Shown: positions 32,937-48,250 of the stretch, one piece after another
How the letters are laid out: every line of letters starts with the position of its first letter
Position numbering within the stretch: the first letter of the stretch is position 1
Source: Escherichia coli
Lineage (GTDB): Bacteria > Pseudomonadota > Gammaproteobacteria > Enterobacterales > Enterobacteriaceae
Direction: 5' to 3' (one strand)
Length of the DNA stretch: 64,000 nucleotides
Assembly: GCF_044324785.1 (NCBI RefSeq)
Contig: NZ_CP172127.1
Notes under the pieces: generated by a model
Seen by the model: the letters and a program-made list of their open reading frames with translations, nothing else
Database searches by the model: none
Told to the model about the DNA's origin: nothing
Translations under genes and position numbers: made by a program

Positions 32937-33836
32937 ATGATTTTCAATATTCAGCGCTACTCGACCCATGATGGCCCCGGTATCCGCACGGTCGTATTTC
33001 TTAAAGGCTGTTCGCTGGGCTGCCGCTGGTGTCAGAACCCGGAAAGCCGCGCCCGCACGCAGGATCTGCTGTATGACGCACGTCTGTGTCTGGAAGGCTG
33101 CGAGCTGTGCGCTAAGGCCGCGCCGGAAGTGATTGAGCGCGCGCTGAATGGCTTGCTTATTCATCGGGAAAAGTTAACCCCGGAGCATCTGACAGCGTTA
33201 ACCGACTGCTGCCCGACACAGGCGTTAACCGTATGTGGTGAAGTGAAAAGCGTTGAGGAGATAATGAAGACCGTTCTGCGCGATAAACCGTTTTACGATC
33301 GCAGCGGCGGCGGCTTAACGCTTTCTGGCGGTGAACCCTTTATGCAGCCGGAAATGGCGATGGCGCTACTGCAAGCCAGCCACGAGGCCGGCATTCATAC
33401 TGCGGTAGAAACCTGTCTGCATGTGCCGTGGAAATATATCACCCCTTCTCTGCCCTATATCGATCTGTTTCTTGCCGATTTAAAACACGTTGCCGACGCA
33501 CCGTTTAAACAGTGGACCGACGGTAATGCCGCCAGGGTGCTGGATAACCTGAAAAAACTCGCCGCAGCGGGCAAAAAAATCATTATCCGCGTGCCGCTGA
33601 TTCAGGGCTTTAATGCCGACGAAACCTCTGTAAAAGCCATTACCGATTTTGCCGCCGACGAGCTGCACGTTGGCGAAATTCATTTCCTGCCCTACCACAC
33701 GCTGGGCATCAACAAATATCACTTACTTAATCTGCCCTATGACGCCCCGGAAAAACCGCTTGATGCGCCAGAACTGCTCGACTTTGCCCAGCAGTATGCC
33801 TGCCAGAAAGGGTTAACCGCGACCTTACGAGGATAA
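32937..33836 (+). CDS. pflE: Glycyl-radical enzyme activating protein PflE (YbiY), radical SAM, about 299 aa
   Basis: [36 protein letters not shown]... with CxxxCxxC radical-SAM motif and a ferredoxin-like cysteine cluster. Confidence 0.85.
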
Positions 33837-33841
33837 CAACC

Positions 33842-36274
33842 ATGACCACACTGAAACTGGATACGCTCAGCGACCGCATTAAAGCGCACAAAAATGCGCT
33901 GGTGCATATTGTGAAACCGCCGGTCTGTACCGAGCGCGCGCAGCACTATACTGAGATGTATCAACAACATCTCGATAAGCCGATCCCGGTACGTCGCGCG
34001 CTGGCGCTGGCGCATCACCTGGCGAATCGCACCATCTGGATCAAGCACGATGAGTTGATCATTGGCAACCAGGCAAGCGAAGTTCGCGCCGCGCCGATCT
34101 TCCCGGAATATACCGTCTCCTGGATCGAAAAAGAGATTGATGATCTGGCGGATCGTCCGGGTGCTGGTTTTGCGGTGAGCGAAGAGAACAAACGTGTTCT
34201 GCATGAAGTGTGCCCTTGGTGGCGCGGTCAGACGGTACAGGATCGCTGCTACGGCATGTTTACCGATGAGCAAAAAGGTCTGCTGGCGACCGGAATCATT
34301 AAAGCGGAAGGCAATATGACCTCCGGCGATGCGCACCTGGCGGTGAATTTCCCGCTACTGCTGGAAAAAGGTCTTGATGGTCTGCGCGAGAAAGTAGCGG
34401 AACGTCGCTCGCGCATCAACCTGACGGTGCTGGAAGATTTGCACGGCGAGCAGTTCCTGAAAGCGATTGATATCGTGCTGGTGGCAGTCAGTGAACACAT
34501 TGAACGTTTCGCTGCCCTGGCGCGTGAAATGGCAGCCACTGAAACCCGCGAAAGCCGTCGCGATGAACTGCTGGCGATAGCAGAAAACTGCGATCTTATC
34601 GCCCACCAGCCGCCGCAGACTTTCTGGCAGGCGCTGCAACTGTGCTACTTCATCCAGTTGATTTTGCAGATCGAATCTAACGGTCACTCGGTATCGTTTG
34701 GTCGTATGGACCAGTATCTCTACCCGTACTATCGCCGCGACGTTGAACTGAACCAGACACTGGATCGTGAACACGCCATCGAGATGCTGCATAGCTGCTG
34801 GTTAAAATTGCTGGAAGTGAACAAAATCCGCTCCGGCTCGCACTCGAAAGCCTCTGCGGGAAGTCCGCTGTATCAGAACGTCACCATTGGCGGACAAAAT
34901 CTGGTTGATGGTCAACCAATGGACGCGGTGAATCCACTCTCTTACGCGATCCTCGAATCCTGCGGTCGCCTGCGTTCTACTCAGCCTAACCTCAGCGTGC
35001 GTTACCATGCAGGAATGAGCAACGATTTCCTCGACGCCTGCGTACAGGTGATCCGCTGCGGCTTCGGGATGCCGGCGTTCAACAACGACGAAATCGTCAT
35101 CCCGGAATTTATTAAACTCGGTATTGAACCGCAGGACGCTTACGACTATGCAGCGATTGGTTGTATCGAAACCGCCGTCGGTGGCAAATGGGGCTATCGC
35201 TGTACCGGCATGAGCTTTATCAACTTCGCCCGCGTGATGCTGGCGGCGCTGGAAGGCGGGCGTGATGCCACCAGCGGCAAAGTGTTCCTGCCACAAGAAA
35301 AAGCGTTGTCAGCGGGTAACTTCAACAACTTCGATGAAGTAATGGACGCATGGGATACGCAAATCCGTTACTACACGCGTAAATCAATCGAAATCGAATA
35401 TGTCGTCGACACCATGCTGGAAGAGAACGTACACGATATTCTCTGCTCGGCGCTGGTGGATGACTGTATTGAGCGAGCGAAAAGTATCAAGCAAGGCGGC
35501 GCTAAATATGACTGGGTTTCTGGCCTGCAGGTCGGCATTGCTAACCTCGGCAACAGCCTGGCGGCAGTGAAGAAACTGGTATTTGAACAGGGCGCGATTG
35601 GTCAGCAACAGCTGGCTGCCGCACTGGCGGATGACTTCGACGGCCTGACTCACGAGCAGCTGCGTCAGCGGCTGATTAACGGTGCGCCTAAGTACGGCAA
35701 CGACGATGATACTGTCGATACGCTGCTGGCTCGCGCTTATCAGACCTATATCGACGAACTAAAACAGTACCATAACCCGCGCTATGGTCGTGGTCCGGTT
35801 GGCGGCAATTATTACGCGGGTACGTCATCTATCTCCGCTAACGTACCCTTTGGCGCGCAGACGATGGCAACGCCGGACGGGCGTAAAGCCCACACCCCGC
35901 TGGCAGAAGGCGCTAGTCCGGCCTCCGGTACTGATCATCTTGGCCCTACTGCGGTCATTGGCTCAGTGGGTAAACTGCCTACGGCCGCGATTCTCGGCGG
36001 CGTGTTGCTCAACCAGAAACTGAATCCGGCAACGCTGGAGAACGAATCTGACAAGCAGAAACTGATGATCCTGCTACGCACCTTCTTTGAAGTGCATAAA
36101 GGCTGGCATATTCAGTACAACATCGTTTCCCGCGAAACGCTGCTGGAAGCGAAAAAACATCCGGATCAGTACCGCGATCTGGTAGTGCGTGTCGCGGGTT
36201 ATTCCGCCTTCTTCACTGCGCTCTCTCCAGACGCACAGGACGATATCATCGCCCGTACTGAACATATGCTGTAA
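33842..36274 (+). CDS. pflF: Glycyl-radical enzyme PflF (YbiW), PFL-like, 810 aa
   Basis: 810-aa ORF with the C-terminal glycyl-radical motif ([10 protein letters not shown]) and PFL-like domain; matches YbiW. Confidence 0.9.
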
Positions 36275-36278
36275 CTCT

Positions 36279-36306
36279 TCCGCCCGGCGGCCACCGTCGC
36301 CGGGCC
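36279..36306 (+). terminator. Hairpin after pflF (gcccggcggccaccgtcgccgggc)
   Basis: GC-rich inverted repeat directly after the pflF stop. Confidence 0.45.
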
Positions 36307-36419
36307 AAATCATTCACATCATCAATTTCATCCTCGCTTTCATTCGAAATATAATTTGTGCTCTGCGTCACATTGTTATTACACTGTTACGGTTTCATTT
36401 TCGAGCCAGGAGCACACCT

Positions 36420-37235
36420 ATGAGCGTAAAAGTTATCGTCACAGACATGGACGGTACTTTTCTTAACGACGCCAAAACGTACAACCAACCACGTTTTATG
36501 GCGCAATATCAGGAACTGAAAAAGCGCGGCATTAAGTTCGTTGTCGCCAGCGGTAATCAGTATTACCAGCTTATTTCGTTCTTTCCTGAGCTAAAGGATG
36601 AGATCTCTTTTGTCGCGGAAAACGGCGCACTGGTTTACGAACATGGCAAGCAACTGTTCCACGGCGAACTGACCCGACATGAATCGCGGATTGTTATTGG
36701 CGAGTTGCTAAAAGATAAGCAACTCAATTTTGTCGCCTGCGGTCTGCAAAGTGCATATGTCAGCGAAAACGCCCCCGAAGCATTCGTCGCACTGATGGCA
36801 AAACACTACCATCGCCTGAAACCTGTAAAAGATTATCAGGAGATTGACGACGTACTGTTCAAGTTTTCGCTCAACCTGCCGGATGAACAAATCCCGTTAG
36901 TGATCGACAAACTGCACGTAGCGCTCGACGGCATTATGAAGCCGGTTACCAGTGGTTTTGGCTTTATCGACCTGATTATTCCTGGCCTGCATAAAGCGAA
37001 TGGTATTTCGCGGTTACTGAAACGCTGGGATCTGTCACCGCAAAATGTGGTAGCGATTGGCGACAGCGGTAACGATGCGGAGATGCTGAAAATGGCGCGT
37101 TATTCCTTTGCGATGGGCAATGCTGCGGAAAACATTAAACAAATCGCCCGTTACGCTACCGATGATAATAATCATGAAGGCGCGCTGAATGTGATTCAGG
37201 CGGTGCTGGATAACACATCCCCTTTTAACAGCTGA
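36420..37235 (+). CDS. ybiV: Sugar phosphatase YbiV (SupH), HAD/Cof family, 271 aa
   Basis: [51 protein letters not shown]...; paralogous to YbjI in this same window; the upstream ORF-track extension from 36189 is rejected. Confidence 0.9.
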
Positions 37236-37386
37236 CCTCTCTACCGGAGCTATGCGCTCCGGTTTTCCCTTCTTTTTACATCCTTTACATCACATCAAAT
37301 CATTAAACTTCCATTAACTTATTTATAACTTATATTGTCACATGCAAATCAGCATAGTTTCGAATGAAAGTTAATGCGAGGTGGTT

Positions 37387-38652
37387 ATGGCTTCTACTTT
37401 TACCAGCGACACATTGCCTGCCGATCACAAAGCAGCTATCCGTCAGATGAAGCACGCGCTGCGGGCGCAGCTTGGCGACGTCCAGCAGATCTTTAATCAG
37501 CTAAGCGATGACATTGCCACGCGAGTGGCTGAAATCAACGCACTCAAAGCACAGGGCGATGCCGTCTGGCCGGTGCTGTCTTATGCCGATATCAAAGCAG
37601 GTCATGTTACTGCAGAGCAGCGCGAACAAATTAAACGTCGCGGTTGTGCGGTGATAAAAGGCCATTTCCCCCGCGAACAAGCGCTAGGCTGGGATCAGTC
37701 GATGCTGGACTATCTGGACCGCAACCGCTTTGACGAGGTCTACAAAGGCCCCGGCGATAATTTCTTCGGGACACTCAGCGCTTCACGTCCCGAGATTTAC
37801 CCCATCTACTGGTCGCAGGCGCAAATGCAGGCCCGCCAGAGTGAAGAAATGGCGAATGTGCAGTCGTTTCTCAATCGTCTGTGGACATTTGAAAGTGATG
37901 GAAAGCAATGGTTTAACCCGGATGTGAGCGTCATCTACCCTGACCGTATCCGCCGCCGTCCGCCCGGAACGACCTCCAAAGGTCTTGGAGCGCATACCGA
38001 CTCCGGGGCGCTGGAACGCTGGCTGCTTCCAGCGTATCAGCACGTTTTCGCCAACGTCTTTAATGGCAATCTGGCGAAATACGATCCCTGGCATGCGGCA
38101 CATCGTACGGAAGTTGAAGAGTACACGGTGGACAACACCACCAAATGTTCCGTGTTTCGGACATTCCAGGGCTGGACAGCGCTCTCTGATATGCTGCCTG
38201 GTCAGGGGTTGCTGCACGTCGTGCCCATTCCTGAAGCCATGGCGTACGTACTGTTACGTCCGCTGCTTGATGATGTGCCGGAGGATGAACTGTGCGGCGT
38301 AGCGCCCGGAAGAGTGTTGCCGGTATCAGAGCAATGGCATCCACTGTTAATTGAGGCGTTAACCAGCATTCCAAAACTCGAGGCCGGAGACTCCGTCTGG
38401 TGGCACTGCGACGTCATCCATTCCGTTGCCCCCGTTGAAAATCAACAGGGTTGGGGCAACGTGATGTACATTCCTGCGGCACCGATGTGCGAGAAAAATC
38501 TTGCCTACGCGCACAAGGTGAAGGCCGCACTGGAAAAAGGCGCATCGCCGGGCGACTTCCCGCGCGAGGACTATGAAACAAACTGGGAAGGACGCTTTAC
38601 GCTTGCCGACCTCAACATTCACGGTAAGCGAGCGTTGGGAATCGACAGCTGA
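37387..38652 (+). CDS. ybiU: YbiU, DUF1479 protein (2OG-oxygenase-like), 421 aa
   Basis: ORF from MASTFTSDTLPADHKAAIRQMKHALRAQL... matches YbiU. Confidence 0.85.
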   Translation: MASTFTSDTLPADHKAAIRQMKHALRAQLGDVQQIFNQLSDDIATRVAEINALKAQGDAVWPVLSYADIKAGHVTAEQREQIKRRGCAVIKGHFPREQALGWDQSMLDYLDRNRFDEVYKGPGDNFFGTLSASRPEIYPIYWSQAQMQARQSEEMANVQSFLNRLWTFESDGKQWFNPDVSVIYPDRIRRRPPGTTSKGLGAHTDSGALERWLLPAYQHVFANVFNGNLAKYDPWHAAHRTEVEEYTVDNTTKCSVFRTFQGWTALSDMLPGQGLLHVVPIPEAMAYVLLRPLLDDVPEDELCGVAPGRVLPVSEQWHPLLIEALTSIPKLEAGDSVWWHCDVIHSVAPVENQQGWGNVMYIPAAPMCEKNLAYAHKVKAALEKGASPGDFPREDYETNWEGRFTLADLNIHGKRALGIDS

Positions 38653-39722
38653 GTGTCGTACAGCCCTTCCCGTTCCACGGCGGTGTTCCCTTTTCCTGGG
38701 CGAACCCGCCGCACTGACTCCCGCACCGCCAATCGTCCGTGCAGCAGCAGCGAGCCCACCGGAGCATCCGGGCGAATCAGCCGCTGTTGCAACATTTGCA
38801 CCGCTTCATTGCCTAGCTCATCGCGTGGCACATGCACAGCCGTCAGGGGAACATCCTCGATTGCCGCAAGGTTAAAGCCGTCGATACTCATCACCGAGAC
38901 ATCCTGTGGTACGCGCAGACCACGACGATGTAGCGCATTTACCGTTCCCGCCGCCATAAAATCCCCGCCGACCAGAAACGCCGTCGGCAACGTCTTGCCA
39001 TTGGCGGCATCCAGCCACGCTCCGACCTTTTCTTCCGCTTCTTTAGCGCTAAAACTGCTGATATTCAGCAAATGACGGTCATGGTGAAAGGCCAGATTAT
39101 GCTGACGCCATGATTCTTTAATCCCTGCAAACCGCTGCTCCATAGTGTAGCGGCGCAGGCACATCACATTCATCACCTCCCGGTGACCCATTTCAAACAG
39201 ATAGCGGGCGGCGAACGCGCCAATTAACCGATGGTCCGGCGCAATCGCCGGGAGGCGCATTCGTTCATCACGGCAGTTGATCAGCACACAAGGCTTAGCG
39301 AGATCGGCGGCCAGATCATGGATGTGCGGATCGTCAATCCCCAGCAGGATCGCCGCCTGCGTATCTGCTTCATTCATCCGCGAGAGAAATAGCGCGGGAT
39401 CGCTGTCAAACTCCTCCAGCGCGCAGTAACGCAGCCGCACTTCATGCGGCGATAACGCTTTGCTGATGCTCTGGATCACACGGTAATAAAAGATATCAGA
39501 TCGTTGGTCAAAAGCGCGTTGCGGCGCGAAAATAATCAGGTTGTTCAGCAACATACGACCTGCTGCCATGCCATCCATCACGCCCAACTCACGCGCGCAG
39601 GCCAGCACCTGTTCGCGAGCGCGTGCACTGGTATTCGCTTTGCCAGCCAGCACCCGCGAAACCGTACTCGGCGATAGCCCGGTACGTGCGGCGATATCGG
39701 CGATTTTCAGCTTCTTGTCCAT
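38619..39722 (-). CDS. LacI-family transcriptional regulator (accessory, not in K-12 at this position), about 367 aa with an unusually long C-terminal tail
   Basis: MDKKLKIADIAARTGLSPSTVSRVLAGKANTSARAREQVLACARELGV... is a LacI-type HTH followed by a periplasmic-binding-protein-like sugar domain; its 3' end overlaps the ybiU 3' end by 34 nt. Confidence 0.7.
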   Translation of the reverse strand: MDKKLKIADIAARTGLSPSTVSRVLAGKANTSARAREQVLACARELGVMDGMAAGRMLLNNLIIFAPQRAFDQRSDIFYYRVIQSISKALSPHEVRLRYCALEEFDSDPALFLSRMNEADTQAAILLGIDDPHIHDLAADLAKPCVLINCRDERMRLPAIAPDHRLIGAFAARYLFEMGHREVMNVMCLRRYTMEQRFAGIKESWRQHNLAFHHDRHLLNISSFSAKEAEEKVGAWLDAANGKTLPTAFLVGGDFMAAGTVNALHRRGLRVPQDVSVMSIDGFNLAAIEDVPLTAVHVPRDELGNEAVQMLQQRLIRPDAPVGSLLLHGRLAVRESVRRVRPGKGNTAVEREGLYDTQLSIPNARLP

Positions 39723-40016
39723 TTTGTGATCTGCCTCTAATTCGGAAATGACAGAATTTTCATGAGCAAAAAAGCCCATTCTGTCTGGCATTAAATCCAT
39801 TTCAGTAATGTATATCAGTCACTCATGGAAAAACGTGCACAAAACCCGCTTTCTTTCGCTTTTAGGGTCTCTTACTGTGAATTGGTAGAACAACTTCCAT
39901 ACAAAAATAATGGAAAAACGAACAACAAAGACTTTATTTATCAAAAAGTTAAAAGTGGTGTGACAACTCCATTCTGACGTTGCCGCACAAACCCTATACC
40001 ATTCTGTGGAGTGCAT
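39723..40016. promoter_or_regulatory. Divergent control region between the LacI-family regulator and the MFS-GH31 genes
   Basis: 294-bp AT-rich, ORF-free intergenic region between divergently oriented genes; position inferred, no operator identified. Confidence 0.4.
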
Positions 40017-41318
40017 ATGAGTCAGGGTATCAATAACGATATGACTGCCAGTAAACCGCGCCATATCGTCAAAAATCTGCGTTGGTGGATACTGGTCCTT
40101 TTTTTGCTCGGTGTTACTGTCAACTACATCACGCGTAACTCGCTGGGTATTCTCGCCCCCGAACTGAAAAGCAGCCTGGGGATTACCACCGAACAATATT
40201 CCTGGATTGTAGGTGCTTTCCAGCTCGCCTATACCCTATTCCAACCGTTGTGCGGATGGCTGATTGACGTCATTGGCCTCAAACTGGGCTTTATGATCTG
40301 CGCGGGACTGTGGGCACTGGCCTGTCTGATGCATGCGGGGGCGGGAAACTGGGTACATCTGGCGCTGTTGCGCTTCTTTATGGGCGGTGCGGAAGCCGCA
40401 GCAACCCCAGCAAACGCCAAAACCATCGGTGAATGGTTTCCAAAATCAGAACGCCCGATCGCCGCAGGCTGGGCAGGCGTCGGTTTTTCCATCGGTGCCA
40501 TGCTGGCCCCACCGATTATCTATTTTGCCCACGCTTCATTCGGCTGGCAGGGTGCATTTATGTTCACTGGCATCCTGGCGATGCTGTGGGTCGTGCTGTG
40601 GTGGGCGTTCTATCACAGCCCGGATAAGCATCCTAACCTCAGCAAAGCCGAGCTGGACTTTATTCGCCAGGATAACGAAGCGCCCCCGGTCAAGTTACCC
40701 TTTCTGACCGCACTGAAAACCGTGGGCAAAAATAAACGCTTTTACGGTATCGCTATCCCGGCCTTTATGGCAGAACCGGCGTGGGCGGTGATGAGTTTCT
40801 GGGTTCCGCTATACCTGTCCAAAACCTATGGCATGGACCTGAAGCAGATCGCATTATTCGCCTGGTTGCCGTTCCTCGCCGCTGATCTTGGCAGTATTGC
40901 CAGCGGCTATCTGACCAAACTTTACACCCGCCTGTTTGGGCTGAGTCGTGTGAACTCCGTTGTCGCATCATCGGTCAGTGGCGCATTCCTGATGGTTTCG
41001 CTGGCGGTGATGGCCTTTACCAATAACCCGTATATCGCCATCGTCCTTATCTCCATCGGCGGCTTCGGTCACCAGATCATCTCCTGCATGCTAAGCGCAC
41101 TGGTGGTGGAATCCTTCGACAAAGGTCAGATGGCCACTGTTAACGGCATGCGCGGTTCTGCCGCGTGGATCGCAAGTTTCCTGTTCTCCCTGATAATCGG
41201 GGTTACCGCAGACAAAATCGGCTTTAACCCCCTGTTTATCGCCATGGGCTTCTTTGACCTGATTGGCGCTTTCTTCCTGGTCACCTTTATTGCTGAACGT
41301 CGCGCAAAACGCGCCTGA
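40017..41318 (+). CDS. MFS transporter resembling the anion:cation symporter family (ExuT/GudP/DgoT-like), about 433 aa
   Basis: 12-TM ORF with N-terminal sequence ...NYITRNSLGILAPELKSSLGITTEQYSWIVGAFQLAYTLFQP typical of ACS-family transporters; RBS ggag 6 nt before the ATG at 40017. Confidence 0.7.
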   Translation: MSQGINNDMTASKPRHIVKNLRWWILVLFLLGVTVNYITRNSLGILAPELKSSLGITTEQYSWIVGAFQLAYTLFQPLCGWLIDVIGLKLGFMICAGLWALACLMHAGAGNWVHLALLRFFMGGAEAAATPANAKTIGEWFPKSERPIAAGWAGVGFSIGAMLAPPIIYFAHASFGWQGAFMFTGILAMLWVVLWWAFYHSPDKHPNLSKAELDFIRQDNEAPPVKLPFLTALKTVGKNKRFYGIAIPAFMAEPAWAVMSFWVPLYLSKTYGMDLKQIALFAWLPFLAADLGSIASGYLTKLYTRLFGLSRVNSVVASSVSGAFLMVSLAVMAFTNNPYIAIVLISIGGFGHQIISCMLSALVVESFDKGQMATVNGMRGSAAWIASFLFSLIIGVTADKIGFNPLFIAMGFFDLIGAFFLVTFIAERRAKRA

Positions 41319-41332
41319 GAGTGGATGTAAAC

Positions 41333-43696
41333 ATGAAAACGCTGAAAAACTGGACCCTGCACAAACAGTCTGCCCACCACGTTGAACTGCTGGTCGATGG
41401 CCAGCATATCCTGTGCCTGTACGTGCTGGAAGAAAATCTGTTCCGCGTGCTGTTAAAACGCAAAGGCGAGCTGGCGCTGGATCGCACCTGGAGCATTGCT
41501 CCGGCGCAGGATGTGCCATGGGAAGGGCGCAGCCGCGAAGATCTCAGCGGCTTTAGCCTGCCCGCGTGGACATTGATCCAGCACGACGACACCGTGGTTA
41601 TCGCCACCGAGTCACTGCGTGTCACCGTTCACCAGCCGCTGTGGCTGGAGTGGCACTATCGTAACAACGAAGGCGAATGGCTGCCGTTGGTGAATGACCG
41701 CCCGACCAGCGCTTATCTGCTGAATGCCCACGGCGATGGCGTGGCACACTATCAGAGCCGTCGTAAAGATGAACGCTTTTATGGCCTCGGAGATAAAGCC
41801 GGCGACCTGCAACGCAACGGTAAACGTTACGAGATGCGTAACCTCGACGCGATGGGCTACAACGCCGTTAGTACTGACCCGCTGTACAAACACATTCCAT
41901 TCACCATCACCCGCCGCGATGACATTAGCTTCGGCCTGTTTTATGACAACCTCAGCAGCTGCTGGCTGGATCTGGGCAACGAGATCGACAACTACCACAC
42001 CGCCTATCGCCGCTGGCAGGCGGAAGCGGGTGATATCGACTACTACCTGTTTACCGGCGAACGCGTACTTGATATCACCAAAGCCTTCGTACGCCTGACC
42101 GGAAAAACCCTGTTCGGACCGAAATGGAGCCTGGGCTACAGCGGTTCAACTATGCACTACACCGATGCGCCGGACGCACAAAATCAGTTGATGAACTTTA
42201 TCCGCCTGTGTGAAGAACATGCAATTCCCTGCGATTCGTTCCAGCTCTCTTCCGGTTATACCTCAATTAACGGCAAACGCTATGTGTTCAACTGGAACTA
42301 CGACAAAGTGCCGCAGCCGAAAGTGATGAGCCAGGCATTTCACAATGCTGGTTTGCACCTGGCCGCCAATATCAAGCCGTGCCTGTTGCAGGATCACCCA
42401 CGCTATAACGAAGTGGCAGAAAGAGGACTGTTCATCCGTGATTCAGAAACAGATGAACCAGAACGTTCCAGCTTCTGGGATGACGAAGGTTCTAACCTCG
42501 ACTTTACTAATCCGCAGACCATCCAGTGGTGGCAGGAAGGCGTGACCACACAGCTTCTGGAGATGGGTATCGACTCCACCTGGAACGACAACAACGAATT
42601 CGAAGTATGGGACGGTGAAGCACGCTGTCACGGCTTTGGTCAGACGATCGCGATCAAACATATTCGCCCAGTGATGCCACTGCTGATGATGCGAGCCTCG
42701 ATGGAAGCCCAGCAGCGTTTCGCTCCGGAAAAACGTCCGTACTTGATCTCCCGCTCCGGCTGCGCGGGAATGCAGCGCTACGTGCAGACCTGGAGTGGCG
42801 ATAACCGCACTAGCTGGGACACTCTGCGCTACAACACCCGCATGGGTCTGGGGATGAGCCTCTCCGGGTTGTATAACCTCGGTCACGACGTCGGCGGTTT
42901 CTCCGGTGATAAACCGGACCCGGAACTGTTTGTACGCTGGGTACAAAACGGCGTGATGCATCCGCGCTTTACGATTCACTCATGGAACGATGACCATACC
43001 GTAAACGAACCGTGGATGTATCCGGGCGTCACTCCGGCGATCCGCAGCGCTATTGAGTTGCGCTATCGCCTGCTGCCCTACTTTTATACCCTGATGTGGC
43101 AGGCATACGCCGATGATGAACCAATGCTACGTCCGACTTTCCTTGACCACGAGCACGACGTTCAGACTTTTGAAGAGTGTGATGACTTCCTGCTTGGTCG
43201 CGATATTTTGGTTGCCAGCGTCGTAGAGCAAGGCGAGCGCCAGCGCCGTGTATGGCTGCCAGATAACGAAACTGGCTGGTACGATTTCTACAACGGCGAA
43301 TGGTTCAGTGGCGGTCAGTGGATCACCCTCGACGCACCGCTGGAGAAACTGCCGCTGATGGTGCGTGCCGGGGCTGGTCTACCGCTCAGCAAACGCATCA
43401 CCTATGTGAGCGCAGAACAAGACGATACCCGCGAACTGAAACTGTTCCCGCTGAAAGGTGTGGGCACAACGTCCGGCCTGCTGTTTGAAGACGATGGCGA
43501 AAGCTGGGGCTACCAAACTGGTAATGCGCTTTGGGTGGAATGGGAAATGGTTTGCGATGGGGCGACCATCAACCTGAAAGTCAACGCGCGCGGGGATTAT
43601 CGTCCTGCATGGAGTGCACTGAAAGTGTCATTACCATTGGAAGAAAAACGCACGCTGCTGGTCAATGGTGTTGAAGGGAGTGAATGGATGCGTTAA
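41333..43696 (+). CDS. Glycoside hydrolase family 31 alpha-glycosidase (about 787 aa)
   Basis: Carries GH31 hallmark motifs: TWNDNNEF (catalytic nucleophile region), RSGCAGMQRY...WSGDN (acid/base region), GHDVGGF; tightly linked (2-14 bp) downstream of the transporter. Confidence 0.75.
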   Translation: MKTLKNWTLHKQSAHHVELLVDGQHILCLYVLEENLFRVLLKRKGELALDRTWSIAPAQDVPWEGRSREDLSGFSLPAWTLIQHDDTVVIATESLRVTVHQPLWLEWHYRNNEGEWLPLVNDRPTSAYLLNAHGDGVAHYQSRRKDERFYGLGDKAGDLQRNGKRYEMRNLDAMGYNAVSTDPLYKHIPFTITRRDDISFGLFYDNLSSCWLDLGNEIDNYHTAYRRWQAEAGDIDYYLFTGERVLDITKAFVRLTGKTLFGPKWSLGYSGSTMHYTDAPDAQNQLMNFIRLCEEHAIPCDSFQLSSGYTSINGKRYVFNWNYDKVPQPKVMSQAFHNAGLHLAANIKPCLLQDHPRYNEVAERGLFIRDSETDEPERSSFWDDEGSNLDFTNPQTIQWWQEGVTTQLLEMGIDSTWNDNNEFEVWDGEARCHGFGQTIAIKHIRPVMPLLMMRASMEAQQRFAPEKRPYLISRSGCAGMQRYVQTWSGDNRTSWDTLRYNTRMGLGMSLSGLYNLGHDVGGFSGDKPDPELFVRWVQNGVMHPRFTIHSWNDDHTVNEPWMYPGVTPAIRSAIELRYRLLPYFYTLMWQAYADDEPMLRPTFLDHEHDVQTFEECDDFLLGRDILVASVVEQGERQRRVWLPDNETGWYDFYNGEWFSGGQWITLDAPLEKLPLMVRAGAGLPLSKRITYVSAEQDDTRELKLFPLKGVGTTSGLLFEDDGESWGYQTGNALWVEWEMVCDGATINLKVNARGDYRPAWSALKVSLPLEEKRTLLVNGVEGSEWMR

Positions 43697-43875
43697 ATCA
43701 TTACCGGGGCCGGGAGGCGACTGCACCTTACCCGGTCCAGCCATCGAATCCTTTACCTCAGTATTTCACGCTGCAGGAAGGCAGCAAACCTGTAAACCCC
43801 GGGAGCTTAAATAAGTAAGTGACCGGGGTGAACAGGTGAAGCCAATGCATCTGCCGCATGAAAGACGGCGGGGAA

Positions 43876-45471
43876 TTAACCGTCGATCCCTTTACTACGC
43901 AGGTAATCTTCGTAATTACCGCTAAAGTCAATAACGCGTTCCGGGGTGATTTCCAGAATGCGGGTCGCCAGGGAGCTTACGAACTCACGGTCGTGTGAAA
44001 CAAAGATCAGCGTGCCCTGATACAGTTCCAGCGCCATGTTCAGCGACTCGATGGATTCCATATCCAGGTGGTTGGTCGGTTCGTCCATGATCAGAATGTT
44101 CGGCTTCTGCATCATTAACTTACCAAACAGCATCCGCCCTTTTTCCCCACCGGAAAGCACTTTCGCTGGTTTTTTGATGTCGTCCTGGCTGAACAGCAAA
44201 CGACCGAGAATGCTGCGTACCGCCTGCTCGTCATCGCCTTCCTGCTTCCACTGGCTCATCCATTCGAACACGGTCAGATCATTTTCAAACTCATATTCGT
44301 GGTCCTGAGCATAGTAACCAATGCGCGCGTTTTCAGACCATTTTACGGTGCCGCTGTCCGGTTGCAGATCGCCCACCAGCGTTTTCAGCAGCGTTGATTT
44401 ACCGACGCCGTTGGTACCCAGTACCGCAAGTTTTTCACCGACCTCCAGCAGCAGGTTGAGATTTTTAAACAGTGGACCGTTATCAAACCCTTTGGTCAGA
44501 CCTTCCACTTCCAGCGCGTTACGGAACAGTTTCTTATCCTGTTCAAAACGGATGAACGGGTTCTGACGGCTGGAGGCTTTCACCTCTTCCAGTTTGATTT
44601 TATCAATCTGGCGCGCGCGCGAAGTTGCCTGGCGAGATTTCGAGGCGTTGGCGCTAAAGCGGCTAACGAAAGATTGCAGCTCAGCAATCTGCGCTTTCTT
44701 CTTGGCGTTATCAGCCAGCAGACGTTCACGCGCCTGGGTCGCCGCCGTCATGTACTCATCGTAGTTGCCCGGATAAACGCGCAGCTCGCCGTAATCCAGA
44801 TCCGCCATATGGGTACAAACCATGTTAAGGAAGTGACGGTCGTGCGAGATGATGATCATGGTGCTGTCACGCTCGTTCAGCACCTGTTCCAGCCAACGAA
44901 TGGTGTCGATGTCGAGGTTGTTGGTCGGTTCGTCGAGCAGGAGAATGTCTGGATCAGCAAAAAGCGCCTGTGCCAGCAGCACACGCAGCTTCCAGCCAGG
45001 AGCAACTTCACTCATCGGGCCGTAGTGCTGTTCCACTGGAATTCCCACGCCAAGCAACAATTCACCGGCGCGAGCTTCCGCAGAGTAACCGTCCATTTCG
45101 CCGTATTTCACTTCCAGATCGGCCACTTTATAGCCGTCTTCTTCACTCATTTCCGGCAAAGCATAGATGCGGTCACGCTCCTGCTTCACTTCCCACAACT
45201 CTTTATGCCCCATGATCACCGTATCCAGCACAGTGAACTCTTCAAAGGCAAACTGATCCTGACGCAGCTTACCAATGCGCTCGTTGGGATCGAGGGAAAC
45301 GTTACCCAACGTCGGCTCTAAGTCGCCGCCGAGGATCTTCATAAAGGTGGATTTACCACTACCGTTCGCGCCAATCAGGCCGTAACGGTTGCCGCCGCCA
45401 AATTTGACGGAAATGTTTTCAAACAACGGCTTACTGCCGAACTGCATGGTGACGTTACTGGAAACTAACAC
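43876..45471 (-). CDS. ybiT: ABC-F family ATPase YbiT (tandem ABC domains), about 530 aa, GTG start
   Basis: (M)[41 protein letters not shown]... two ABC cassettes without a TM domain; matches YbiT. Confidence 0.9.
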
Positions 45472-45689
45472 AGGCGTATCCTGAAAAGAGATATGACAAA
45501 CCGCGCATTATGCCATAAGTCTGAAAGAAGATCCTGCTCCTCGCTTAAGGTCTACACTCAAGCCAAAGGCAAAAAATGTGATTTCGTACACATCTGATTT
45601 CACTGTGAGCTGGAATGAACTTATAATGCGCTTCCAATACTCTAATATTCTCAACCCAATGGCCTGCCAGGCACAAAATCTCGCTTAAC

Positions 45690-46610
45690 ATGAATATGAA
45701 ATTGAAAACATTATTCGCAGCGGCCTTCGCTGTTGTCGGCTTTTGCAGTACCGCCTCTGCGGTAACTTATCCTCTGCCAACCGACGGGAGTCGCCTGGTT
45801 GGTCAGAATCAGGTGATCACCATTCCTGAAGGTAACACTCAGCCGCTGGAGTATTTTGCCGCCGAGTACCAGATGGGGCTTTCCAATATGATGGAAGCGA
45901 ACCCCGGTGTGGATACCTTCCTGCCGAAAGGCGGTACTGTACTGAACATTCCGCAGCAGCTGATCCTGCCGGATACCGTTCATGAAGGCATCGTCATTAA
46001 CAGTGCAGAGATGCGTCTGTATTACTATCCGAAAGGAACCAACACTGTTATCGTGCTGCCGATCGGCATTGGTCAGTTAGGCAAAGACACGCCTATCAAC
46101 TGGACCACCAAAGTTGAGCGTAAAAAAGCAGGCCCGACCTGGACGCCGACCGCCAAAATGCACGCAGAGTACCGCGCTGCGGGCGAACCGCTTCCGGCTG
46201 TCGTTCCGGCAGGTCCGGATAACCCGATGGGTCTGTATGCACTCTACATCGGTCGCCTGTACGCTATCCATGGCACCAACGCCAACTTCGGTATCGGCCT
46301 GCGTGTAAGTCATGGCTGTGTGCGTCTGCGTAACGAAGACATTAAATTCCTGTTCGAGAAAGTGCCTGTCGGTACTCGCGTGCAGTTTATTGATGAGCCG
46401 GTGAAAGCGACTACCGAACCAGACGGCAGCCGTTACATTGAAGTCCATAACCCGCTGTCTACCACCGAAGCCCAGTTTGAAGGTCAGGAAATTGTGCCAA
46501 TTACCCTGACGAAGAGCGTGCAGACAGTGACCGGTCAGCCAGATGTTGATCAGGTTGTTCTGGATGAAGCGATCAAAAATCGTTCCGGGATGCCGGTTCG
46601 TCTGAATTAA
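45690..46610 (+). CDS. ldtB: L,D-transpeptidase LdtB (YbiS), 306 aa
   Basis: [24 protein letters not shown] signal peptide, LysM-like region and YkuD domain with the catalytic HGCVRL motif region ([12 protein letters not shown]). Confidence 0.9.
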
Positions 46611-46629
46611 TCGTCAAAACGTAAAACAG

Positions 46630-46658
46630 AGGCGGACTCATCATCCGCCTTTTTTATT
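46630..46658 (+). terminator. Intrinsic terminator after ldtB
   Basis: Hairpin aggcggactcatcatccgcct followed by tttttt. Confidence 0.65.
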
Positions 46659-46667
46659 TGCCAGACC

Positions 46668-47786
46668 CTACCAGGCCGGGATCATAACCAACAAAACGTA
46701 TCCCACCAGCGCCGCCCACAACAGCATCGGTATTGAATAGAGATGGAAACGCCACCAGATACGGCGATCGTTCGCCATCCGTAACGCAATCAAATTTGCC
46801 AGCGATCCGGGTAATAAACCAAAGCCACCTACGTTAACCGCCCATGCCAGCAGCAACGACGGCGGCACATAATTGAGCAGCAAAATGGTACTCGGCACGT
46901 TACTGATCACCTGCGATAAACCGATTGCCGTTAACCATAACCCGGGTTCAGATAAATGACTCACGTTACCCAACACACCTTGCAACGCTGGAAGCTGGGT
47001 CAGTAAATGGACGTCGATAAACATCGCCATAAACACCAGCAGCAGCGTCCAGTCCACACTCAACACCACGCGACGTGCCAGCAGCGCAAAGCCCGCCGCC
47101 ACAATCACCAGTCCCCACAGCTCTTGTTTTAACTCCAGCGCCGTCAGAAAGACGATATACAGCCCCAGACAACTCCACACCAGCCGCGGTTTCCACTCCG
47201 GAGTTTGCACCCCCGTATGGTATTGGAGTGCCTTTCCAGGGAAACAACACCAGCACAGGAGCAGGAGCGTCAGCATCATTGCGCCAGCCAGTGGTGCCAT
47301 TTGGGCAATAAATCCGGCAAACGAAAGACCAGAACGTCCCCAGATAAGAATATTTTGCGGGTTGCCAATTGGCGTCAGTAGCGAACCAGCGTTGACTGCC
47401 AGCGCCTCAAAAATAATCAGCCGATTAACCGGGATCTCACACAGTCTTTTGAGCGTGATAGTCAGCGGAACAACTATAAACAGCGCGACATCGTTGGTCA
47501 GAAAGGTAGAAAGCAGCGCCGCCGCCAGCACCATAAACATCGCCAGCCGACGCTCCGTAGCAAAGCGGCGCACCATTTTGCGCCCCAGCACATCAAAATA
47601 ACCGCTTAGCTCCACACCTTTAGTCAGCAGCATCAGGCCGCTTAAGGTGATGATGGTGTGCCAGTCGATAGCAGCAGGCCAGGATTTCGGTGCAAAGGGA
47701 ACAAAAAAACTTAATCCGATGCCAACAAGAATTAATAACTGAAAAAAACGATCGCCTTGCAGCGTGCGTAAAAAAGGCAGGCTCAT
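46668..47786 (-). CDS. ybiR: YbiR, putative inner-membrane anion transporter (ArsB/NhaD-type), 372 aa
   Basis: Hydrophobic 372-aa ORF; start overlaps the mntR stop (operon mntR-ybiR). Confidence 0.85.
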
Positions 47787-48250
47787 TTGGCACCGTGTTT
47801 CTGGGTAAACAAACGAAAGGCATCCAGCGTCTCTTCACTAACATGGTGCTCCATGCCTTCCGCGTCGCGACGGGCGATTTCCGGACTGACGCCCAACACC
47901 AACAAGAAATTTTCGACTATCTGATGTCGCTCGCGGCTTTCCTGCGCCAGTTTCTCTCCTTCTGCCGTTAAAAACACGCCACGCCAGGGGATCATTTCAA
48001 TCAGCCCCATGGTTGCCAGCCGCTTAAGCATTTTCGCCACCGTCGGTTGCGAAACCCCCAGACGAGCAGCCATGTCCACCTGACGAGCTTCCCCCACTTC
48101 CCTGATCAAGTCAGAAATCAGCTCAACGTAATCATCAATAAGCTCGCGCCGATGCGCCTCTCTGACCTGGCGGAACCCTTCAACGTGCTCTTCCACGTTC
48201 ACTAACTGCGTCACTTTTTTTGCTGTTGGCGTACCTGCGCGACGACTCAT
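47783..48250 (-). CDS. mntR: Manganese-responsive transcriptional regulator MntR (DtxR family), 155 aa
   Basis: [71 protein letters not shown]... matches MntR. Confidence 0.9.

Follow-up and report, generated by a model that had tools for sequence, protein, structure and literature searches.

A complete ERIC element and a decayed REP-like hairpin between a GH31 gene and ybiT of Escherichia coli, at the end of a probably ancestral gene cluster

The window, i.e., the whole stretch of 64,000 nucleotides of Escherichia coli DNA that was analysed, carries between ybiU and ybiT three genes for a LacI-family regulator, an MFS transporter, and a glycoside hydrolase of family 31 (GH31), followed by a spacer of 179 bp that reaches from the end of the GH31 open reading frame (43696) to the end of the ybiT open reading frame on the minus strand (43876). 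Coordinates of the GH31 gene were carried over from the RefSeq annotation of strain XJ6.1. The features of the locus are the following:

37387–38652, plus strand: ybiU (DUF1479), the left flank (open reading frame list and RefSeq annotation)
38619–39779, minus strand: LacI-family regulator gene, with a 34-nt tail-to-tail overlap with ybiU
38640–43882, no strand: variable segment, with the last three ybiU codons, the lacI-family, MFS, and GH31 genes, the spacer, and the last ybiT codons
40017–41318, plus strand: MFS transporter gene (open reading frame list and RefSeq annotation)
41333–43696, plus strand: GH31 gene, the last of the cluster (open reading frame list and RefSeq annotation)
43697–43875, no strand: spacer from the GH31 stop to the ybiT stop, 179 bp, wholly missing from K-12-type genomes
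43707–43739, plus strand: decayed REP-like hairpin GCCGGGAGGCGACTGCACCTTACCCGGTCCA, from positional alignment with REP units in related genera
43748–43877, plus strand: full-length ERIC/IRU element, from nhmmer profile, alignment, primer match, and hairpin
43876–45471, minus strand: ybiT (ABC-F family ATPase), the right flank, 531 aa with the C-terminus GIDG-stop

The spacer had been introduced in a preliminary description, made from the letters of the window, as GC-rich and free of open reading frames, and this was confirmed: its GC content is 55.3% (51.1% for the 64-kb window), and no open reading frame of at least 60 aa was found in 43697–43875. Shorter open reading frames of 29–57 aa overlap the spacer; they run into the flanking genes or sit within the repeat described below. 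Folding of the whole spacer gave z = −4.3 on the plus strand and z = −3.75 on the minus strand.

ERIC stands for enterobacterial repetitive intergenic consensus, a small, non-autonomous, MITE-like mobile repeat. A profile of this family was built from five independent E. coli copies only (aceF-lpdA, pepB-iscX, yjbE-yjbF, rpsB-tsf, and iscS-iscR), which were the best matches of the spacer in genomes without this locus; all five are intergenic and align with the spacer across about 125 nt, the aceF-lpdA copy with 77% identity over 110 nt (blastn, E = 1e-13). Searching the 64-kb window with nhmmer returned one sole match, 43748–43877, which covers model positions 6–136 of 139 (E = 1.9e-29, 97.7 bits). 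The spacer sequence was matched in 5423 of the 5426 complete E. coli genomes, at a median of 9 places per genome, and the profile found numerous copies in other genera. The sequences of the primers ERIC1R and ERIC2, which appear together in 246 papers, were confirmed from the literature and located in the element: ERIC2 matches at 43813 with 19 of its 22 bases, and the complement of ERIC1R at 43791 with 16 of 22 in an ungapped comparison, the window copy having a 1-nt deletion there. The central sequence of the hairpin, GGAGCTTAAATAAGTAAGTGACCGGGGTGA, is similar to the ERIC consensus. As aligned to the profile the element measures 130 nt, and between the outer ends of its terminal inverted repeats 124 bp (43752–43875); these repeats are TTTACC (43752–43757) and GGGGAA (43870–43875), with the centre of the palindrome near 43811, and their counterparts in Citrobacter read TTTCCC...GGGAAA. 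The right end abuts or overlaps the TTA at 43876–43878 that is the complement of the ybiT stop codon. At this end, TA is present within that TTA, and at the left end there is none.

In the literature, the ERIC/IRU family is described as 127 bp long, intergenic, and co-transcribed, with terminal inverted repeats, TA at the termini, and a long stem-loop (PMC2229807, PMC3184786, PMC10969869, which summarise Sharples & Lloyd 1990, Hulton, Higgins & Sharp 1991, and Wilson & Sharp 2006); the elements are also named RU-1. The window copy shares with the family a length of about 125–130 bp, central and terminal inverted repeats, the long imperfect hairpin, an intergenic site 3′ of genes, and dispersal in many copies per genome. 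It shows no structural difference from the family; what sets it apart is its direct contact with a stop codon and the presence of copies at the corresponding position in other genera. By its sequence, the hairpin at 43748–43877 is a member of the ERIC family, with every sequence-level defining feature that was tested, the TA of the termini being seen at the right end only. The spacer that bears it is missing from K-12, O157:H7, and CFT073, and the window copy is hence of the type of the extra ERICs previously reported in intergenic regions of non-K-12 strains (PMC10969869).

The core of the element is a palindrome with arms of 22 nt (43788–43809 and 43816–43837), around which about 125 nt fold into one hairpin of −49.1 kcal/mol (z = −4.5; none of 200 shuffles was as good). 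A consensus fold of 24 ERIC copies from many genera likewise gave one long hairpin with 36 pairs, 25 of which show compensatory changes. This large palindrome lies to the right of an inverted repeat quoted in the preliminary description and had been overlooked there. The quoted repeat itself was found (ccggggccggg at 43704–43714 and cccggtcc at 43731–43738). The several short GC-rich inverted repeats described for the spacer are parts of two known elements that had not been recognised there, the complete ERIC and a REP-like hairpin. Folded in 53 nt, the quoted repeat reaches −19.2 kcal/mol with z = −1.6, and 14 of 200 shuffles were as good, so that this fold is not beyond chance.

The stretch 43707–43739 aligns with REP units that are located just 3′ of the GH31 stop in Trabulsiella, Citrobacter sp. 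MGH106, and Enterobacter chuandaensis, and is identical to the Trabulsiella REP at the same position in 24 of 34 bases. At position 43725, three of the four other carrier genomes compared have G and not A, which restores a GGCG/CGCC pairing. With REP/BIME units it shares a GC-rich, imperfectly palindromic sequence (about 33 nt), a place immediately 3′ of a stop codon, and alignment with REP units at the corresponding position in related genera, and it differs from them by its decay, the stem being interrupted in this strain and the fold being no better than that of shuffled sequences. Its flavour is the CCCGG of Citrobacter, Enterobacter, and Trabulsiella REPs, in contrast to the ATCCGG/ATCAGG of the REPs in the K-12 spacer. 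We read 43707–43739 as a decayed hairpin that is REP-like, on the basis of positional alignment alone, given the z of −1.6 for its fold.

The spacer had also been expected to hold the transcription terminators of both convergent genes. This was not supported by a pattern scan of 43300–44300, in which neither an intrinsic terminator (a hairpin with a T run directly after it; 0 sites, both strands scanned) nor a promoter-like site was found. The spacer resembles Rho-independent terminators in having stable GC-rich hairpins downstream of both stop codons and departs from them in having no T/U run after any hairpin on either strand. Convergent transcripts of GH31 and ybiT would run into the REP-like and ERIC sequences, and in their RNA the ERIC would form a long hairpin and the REP a short one. 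Stable hairpins are known as barriers to 3′-exonucleases; those of the spacer may be 3′-end structures which block or modulate decay, and not canonical hairpin-plus-U terminators.

A different reading would have the spacer encode a distinct small RNA or small protein instead of a passive repeat. The short open reading frames of 29–57 aa could be taken in its favour, but they enter the flanking genes on the wrong strand or in the wrong frame, and no promoter-like site lies in 43300–44300. For a small RNA there is further the fact that ERIC-derived RNAs are held in Rfam as sRNAs, and a weak match to CssrA at 43822–43920 (21.9 bits, E = 0.66) which is far below the gathering score of that family, 93; in the whole stretch of 36000–47000, the Rfam search yielded sub-threshold hits only. 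CssrA itself represents the right-hand half of the ERIC between rpsB and tsf, and comparably weak hits come from other ERIC copies. We consider the reading as a small RNA or small protein almost certainly wrong. A CssrA sRNA gene at 43822–43920 was accordingly rejected as a candidate, its weak match having been traced to shared ERIC sequence: the window hit arises because the CssrA family is ERIC-derived. On the E. coli rpsB-tsf spacer (L006, 1552–1661), CssrA (RF02798) covers the right ERIC half plus downstream sequence with 136 bits, and V_AS5 and Ysr49 matched entire ERIC copies below threshold. As judged from these matches, more than one ‘sRNA’ family in Rfam, indeed several, is ERIC-derived.

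The extent of the surrounding variable segment was determined by alignment with a K-12-type genome (strain 1A), with which identity ends at 38639 and restarts at 43883. Since identity restarts only there, the whole spacer is within the variable segment. The segment is present in 575 of the 5426 complete E. coli genomes, with PCN033 and an ST38 isolate among the carriers. K-12-type genomes have instead about 260 bp of unrelated sequence, made up of two classical REPs and a hairpin adjoining ybiT; no remnants of the cluster were found in this K-12-type spacer, its sole matches being REP units elsewhere. The proposal that the spacer belongs to a segment without K-12 counterpart was thus upheld by this alignment, in which no spacer base is shared, and the opposite outcome, a spacer that is entirely ancestral, was not what the comparison with the K-12 type returned. 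The right recombination boundary, by contrast, had been placed inside the spacer, and the edge is located 7 nt beyond it, in the last codons of ybiT. At this end, YbiT terminates in GIDG-stop (531 aa) here and in GIE-stop (530 aa) in the K-12 type; at the other end, the last three codons of ybiU differ (IDS-stop here, MDV-stop in the K-12 type). Both variants of the YbiT and of the YbiU C-terminus also occur in cluster-bearing other genera, and therefore neither gene end is a deletion scar.

Two further observations concern the segment ends. A weak inverted match surrounds the segment, with GGA ATC GAC AGC TGA at the ybiU end and GGG ATC GAC GGT TAA at the ybiT end (38636–38652 and 43876–43892); other genera do not share it, and chance is its probable origin. 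The tail overlap of ybiU and the LacI-family gene (38619–38652) is 34 nt long here and usually 34, 79, or 82 nt in other genera, and these lengths mark at least two allelic forms of the regulator C-terminus.

The distribution of the cluster outside E. coli was assessed by scanning species-representative genomes with the GH31 protein and keeping the best 80 loci. At least 32 of these 80 best loci, from over 30 other enterobacterial species, have the order ybiU-lacI-MFS-GH31-ybiT, and a further 17 have lacI-MFS-GH31-ybiT without a detected ybiU. In the syntenic loci the lacI-family gene is on the opposite strand and overlaps the ybiU tail, usually with ybiW and ybiV upstream and ldtB downstream. 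Full synteny was found in, among others, Enterobacter, Citrobacter, Klebsiella, Raoultella, Kluyvera, Kosakonia, Leclercia, and Lelliottia, and also in Trabulsiella, Pseudocitrobacter, Phytobacter, Pluralibacter, Siccibacter, and Salmonella enterica subsp. diarizonae, and the part lacI-MFS-GH31-ybiT-ldtB is kept in Buttiauxella, Cedecea, Mangrovibacter, and other genera. Regarding composition, the cluster has a GC content of 54–56% and a GC3 of 0.61–0.65, next to a flank GC3 of 0.54–0.64. The flanks diverge from the K-12 type by an even 2–2.5%, with no rise toward the junctions, and diversity of the cluster among E. coli carriers is up to about 2%.

The preliminary description had viewed the segment as acquired by insertion, by a mechanism that it called unclear, and had reported neither direct repeats nor an integrase. 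The latter holds. The longest word common to both junction zones is 6 nt long, which was equalled or beaten in 241 of 500 shuffles; no repeat family, direct or inverted, brackets the segment beyond chance; no tRNA gene lies in 33000–48000; and no integrase or mobility gene was found between ybiU and ybiT, the RefSeq annotation of an equivalent genome listing the LacI-family, MFS, and GH31 genes only. For the insertion itself, loss in most E. coli is the simpler account, in view of the conserved synteny, the matching GC and GC3, and the uniform flank divergence. Because the cluster, which would serve sugar utilisation, occupies the same position between ybiU and ybiT across the Enterobacteriaceae, its most likely history is an ancestral presence followed by loss from about 89% of the E. 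coli genomes sequenced.

If the spacer were instead the right junction of a horizontally acquired island, bearing a recombination scar together with the terminators of both convergent genes, the limited distribution of the segment (just 575 of 5426 E. coli genomes) and the unrelated sequence in its place in the K-12 type would be accounted for, and so would the absence of other Escherichia species from the best 80 GH31 loci and the exchange of alleles of the locus between genera. The gene order at the site is nevertheless conserved across many enterobacterial genera, composition equals that of the flanks, flank divergence is flat near the junctions, and integrase, tRNA gene, and flanking direct repeat are all lacking. 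The best foreign GH31 protein among the matches listed is 91% identical, so that no recent donor is visible; moreover, no terminator pattern was found and the discontinuity is in ybiT codons and not in the spacer. An origin as an island junction is in our view improbable. What the segment has in common with integrative genomic islands is only the presence/absence polymorphism among strains; it differs from them in having no integrase, att-type direct repeats, tRNA gene, or compositional shift, and in that many genera have these genes at this very site.

Among the loci listed, the regulator and transporter of E. coli are most similar to their Kluyvera counterparts (88–93% aa identity) and not to those of Citrobacter, and Citrobacter werkmanii has an Enterobacter-like regulator allele; going by these similarities, there has evidently been movement of ybiU-ybiT alleles from genus to genus. 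The best 80 GH31 loci listed included no other Escherichia species, and a divergent (90–95%) E. coli carrier of the cluster that could represent a cryptic clade was not found. Because other Escherichia are missing from the best 80 loci and the similarities among alleles depart from the species tree, the cluster may have been replaced by an old re-import into E. coli through homologous recombination. At another chromosomal site, a second GH31 gene with 74.5% DNA identity to the 3′ part of the window GH31 gene is present in 223 E. coli genomes (e.g., E. coli strain C, NZ_CP029371.1, 2925465–2926190), and some cluster carriers show two places.

Within E. coli, the ybiV-ybiT interval occurs in at least four haplotypes, namely the full cluster, the K-12-type REP pair, an O157 type that is short of one REP, and a type without ybiU. 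The last is represented by ZJ3920 (L088, 1461–1661), and the O157:H7 locus was entered in the haplotype comparison as L090. The haplotype set further includes the VE-T2 locus (L089, 1868–2848), and in one E. coli strain an IS621 transposase gene lies in the REP-containing spacer. The ybiU-ybiT region has undergone repeated loss, along with turnover of its repeats.

An ERIC in the same orientation is present at the ybiT stop of Citrobacter werkmanii, C. amalonaticus, Enterobacter asburiae, Enterobacter sp. Bisph1, Franconibacter (‘Enterobacter’) pulveris, the metagenome-assembled Enterobacteriaceae UBA3516, and Kosakonia. It is patchy among genera, being found in about 11 of the 54 loci that have both GH31 and ybiT, and genera without it have REP units there instead. 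The window ERIC is 86–88% identical to the copies of C. werkmanii, C. amalonaticus, E. asburiae, and UBA3516 and 68–73% identical to its E. coli paralogues, which argues that the ERIC at this site is old. For comparison, the adjacent coding DNA is 80–82% (GH31) and 86–87% (ybiT) identical to that of the same four taxa. By these identities, the window ERIC is the positional counterpart of the copies in other genera and changes no faster than the neighbouring genes. Among the E. coli carriers compared, the spacer has just a handful of differing positions. Of the 5426 genomes, 576 had at least 80% of an ERIC-containing query and 575 the cluster, and none of these 575 E. coli genomes was found to have an unoccupied site, with TA only, next to the ybiT stop.

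ERICs are usually described as single dispersed copies. Between GH31 and ybiT of Kosakonia quasisacchari (L038, 10418–11192), there is a head-to-tail ERIC array with a period of 128 and 5.5 copies (TRF) that yielded 7 profile hits; K. pseudosacchari has 3–4 copies between the two genes, and Franconibacter pulveris 2 (L067, 10419–10796, and L045, 10504–10783).

Such local amplification in Kosakonia would also be compatible with a recent, E. coli-specific MITE insertion into the TA of the ybiT stop, the stop being a hot spot that was hit repeatedly across genera. ERIC-type elements are described as TA-flanked (PMC2229807, PMC3184786), the window element ends at the TTA complementary to the ybiT stop, and its distribution of about 11 in 54 loci is patchy. 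Independent recent hits are hard to reconcile, though, with the 86–88% identity to same-site copies of Citrobacter and E. asburiae as opposed to 68–73% to the E. coli paralogues tested, with the single orientation in all loci, with the near-constancy of the copy across E. coli carriers that differ by about 2% in their cluster, and with the missing TA on the left. We consider a recent insertion very improbable and retain an old ERIC shared by position between the genera; that the element was originally inserted at the stop-codon TA is a conjecture.

The position of the element relative to ybiT bears on its possible effect. In reviews of ERICs (PMC2229807, PMC3184786, PMC10969869), an ERIC at the 3′ end of a gene in Yersinia is reported to be able to lower the transcript level, depending on its orientation, and the proposal of De Gregorio et al. 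2005, as given in those reviews, is that in the far terminal repeat an RNase E site becomes exposed through a ribosome-aided conformational change, by which the upstream mRNA is destabilised. In the window, the ERIC begins 0–2 nt after the ybiT stop codon, and since it starts this close to the stop, the geometry fits what the ribosome/RNase E model requires. A ribosome that terminates on ybiT would sit over the near terminal repeat and open the base of the stem. On this analogy, the ERIC could be, instead of passive repeat DNA, a cis-acting 3′-UTR element which has been kept in precisely this place and orientation since before the split of Escherichia, Citrobacter, Enterobacter, and Kosakonia, and which evolves no faster than the adjacent, strongly conserved ABC-F gene because it sets the decay of ybiT mRNA via stem opening and an RNase E site. 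We offer this as a tentative proposal with a small chance of being correct.

Other elements were observed at the same place in loci without ERIC. In cluster-less E. coli, the hairpin just 3′ of the ybiT stop shows paired changes between haplotypes, CCGTCACCCCGAC...GGGGTGACGG versus CAGTAGCCCTGAC...AGGGCTACTG (L002, 5955–5990, compared with L091 and L088, alignment columns about 258–290), which suggests that structure at the ybiT 3′ end may be maintained whichever element supplies it. In genera without ERIC (L025, L012, L042, L077), a REP next to ybiT is followed by a T run on the GH31 strand, e.g., GCCCGGTAAGCGTAGCGCCACCGGGCTTTGTTTTTA, as seen in the last ~40 nt before the ybiT stop (alignment columns 60–116); REP plus T run looks like a putative intrinsic terminator for the GH31 operon in these genera. 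The E. coli ERIC haplotype is without the T run seen in the ERIC-less genera.

Altogether, the spacer is, with good confidence, a decayed REP-like hairpin plus a complete ERIC, forming the tail of a probably ancestral cluster that was lost from about 89% of E. coli. As a finding this is real but ordinary, both repeat families being already known. It does correct the view of the locus: for a three-gene block that is variable in E. coli and resembles an acquired island, an ancestral enterobacterial cluster which most strains have lost is the better reading, and comparison with K-12 alone is a poor ground for inferring insertion. Of modest interest is that an ERIC is located at the ybiT stop in several genera and is about as conserved there as the adjacent coding DNA, so that the site offers a natural test case for the proposed ribosome/RNase E model of how ERICs act.
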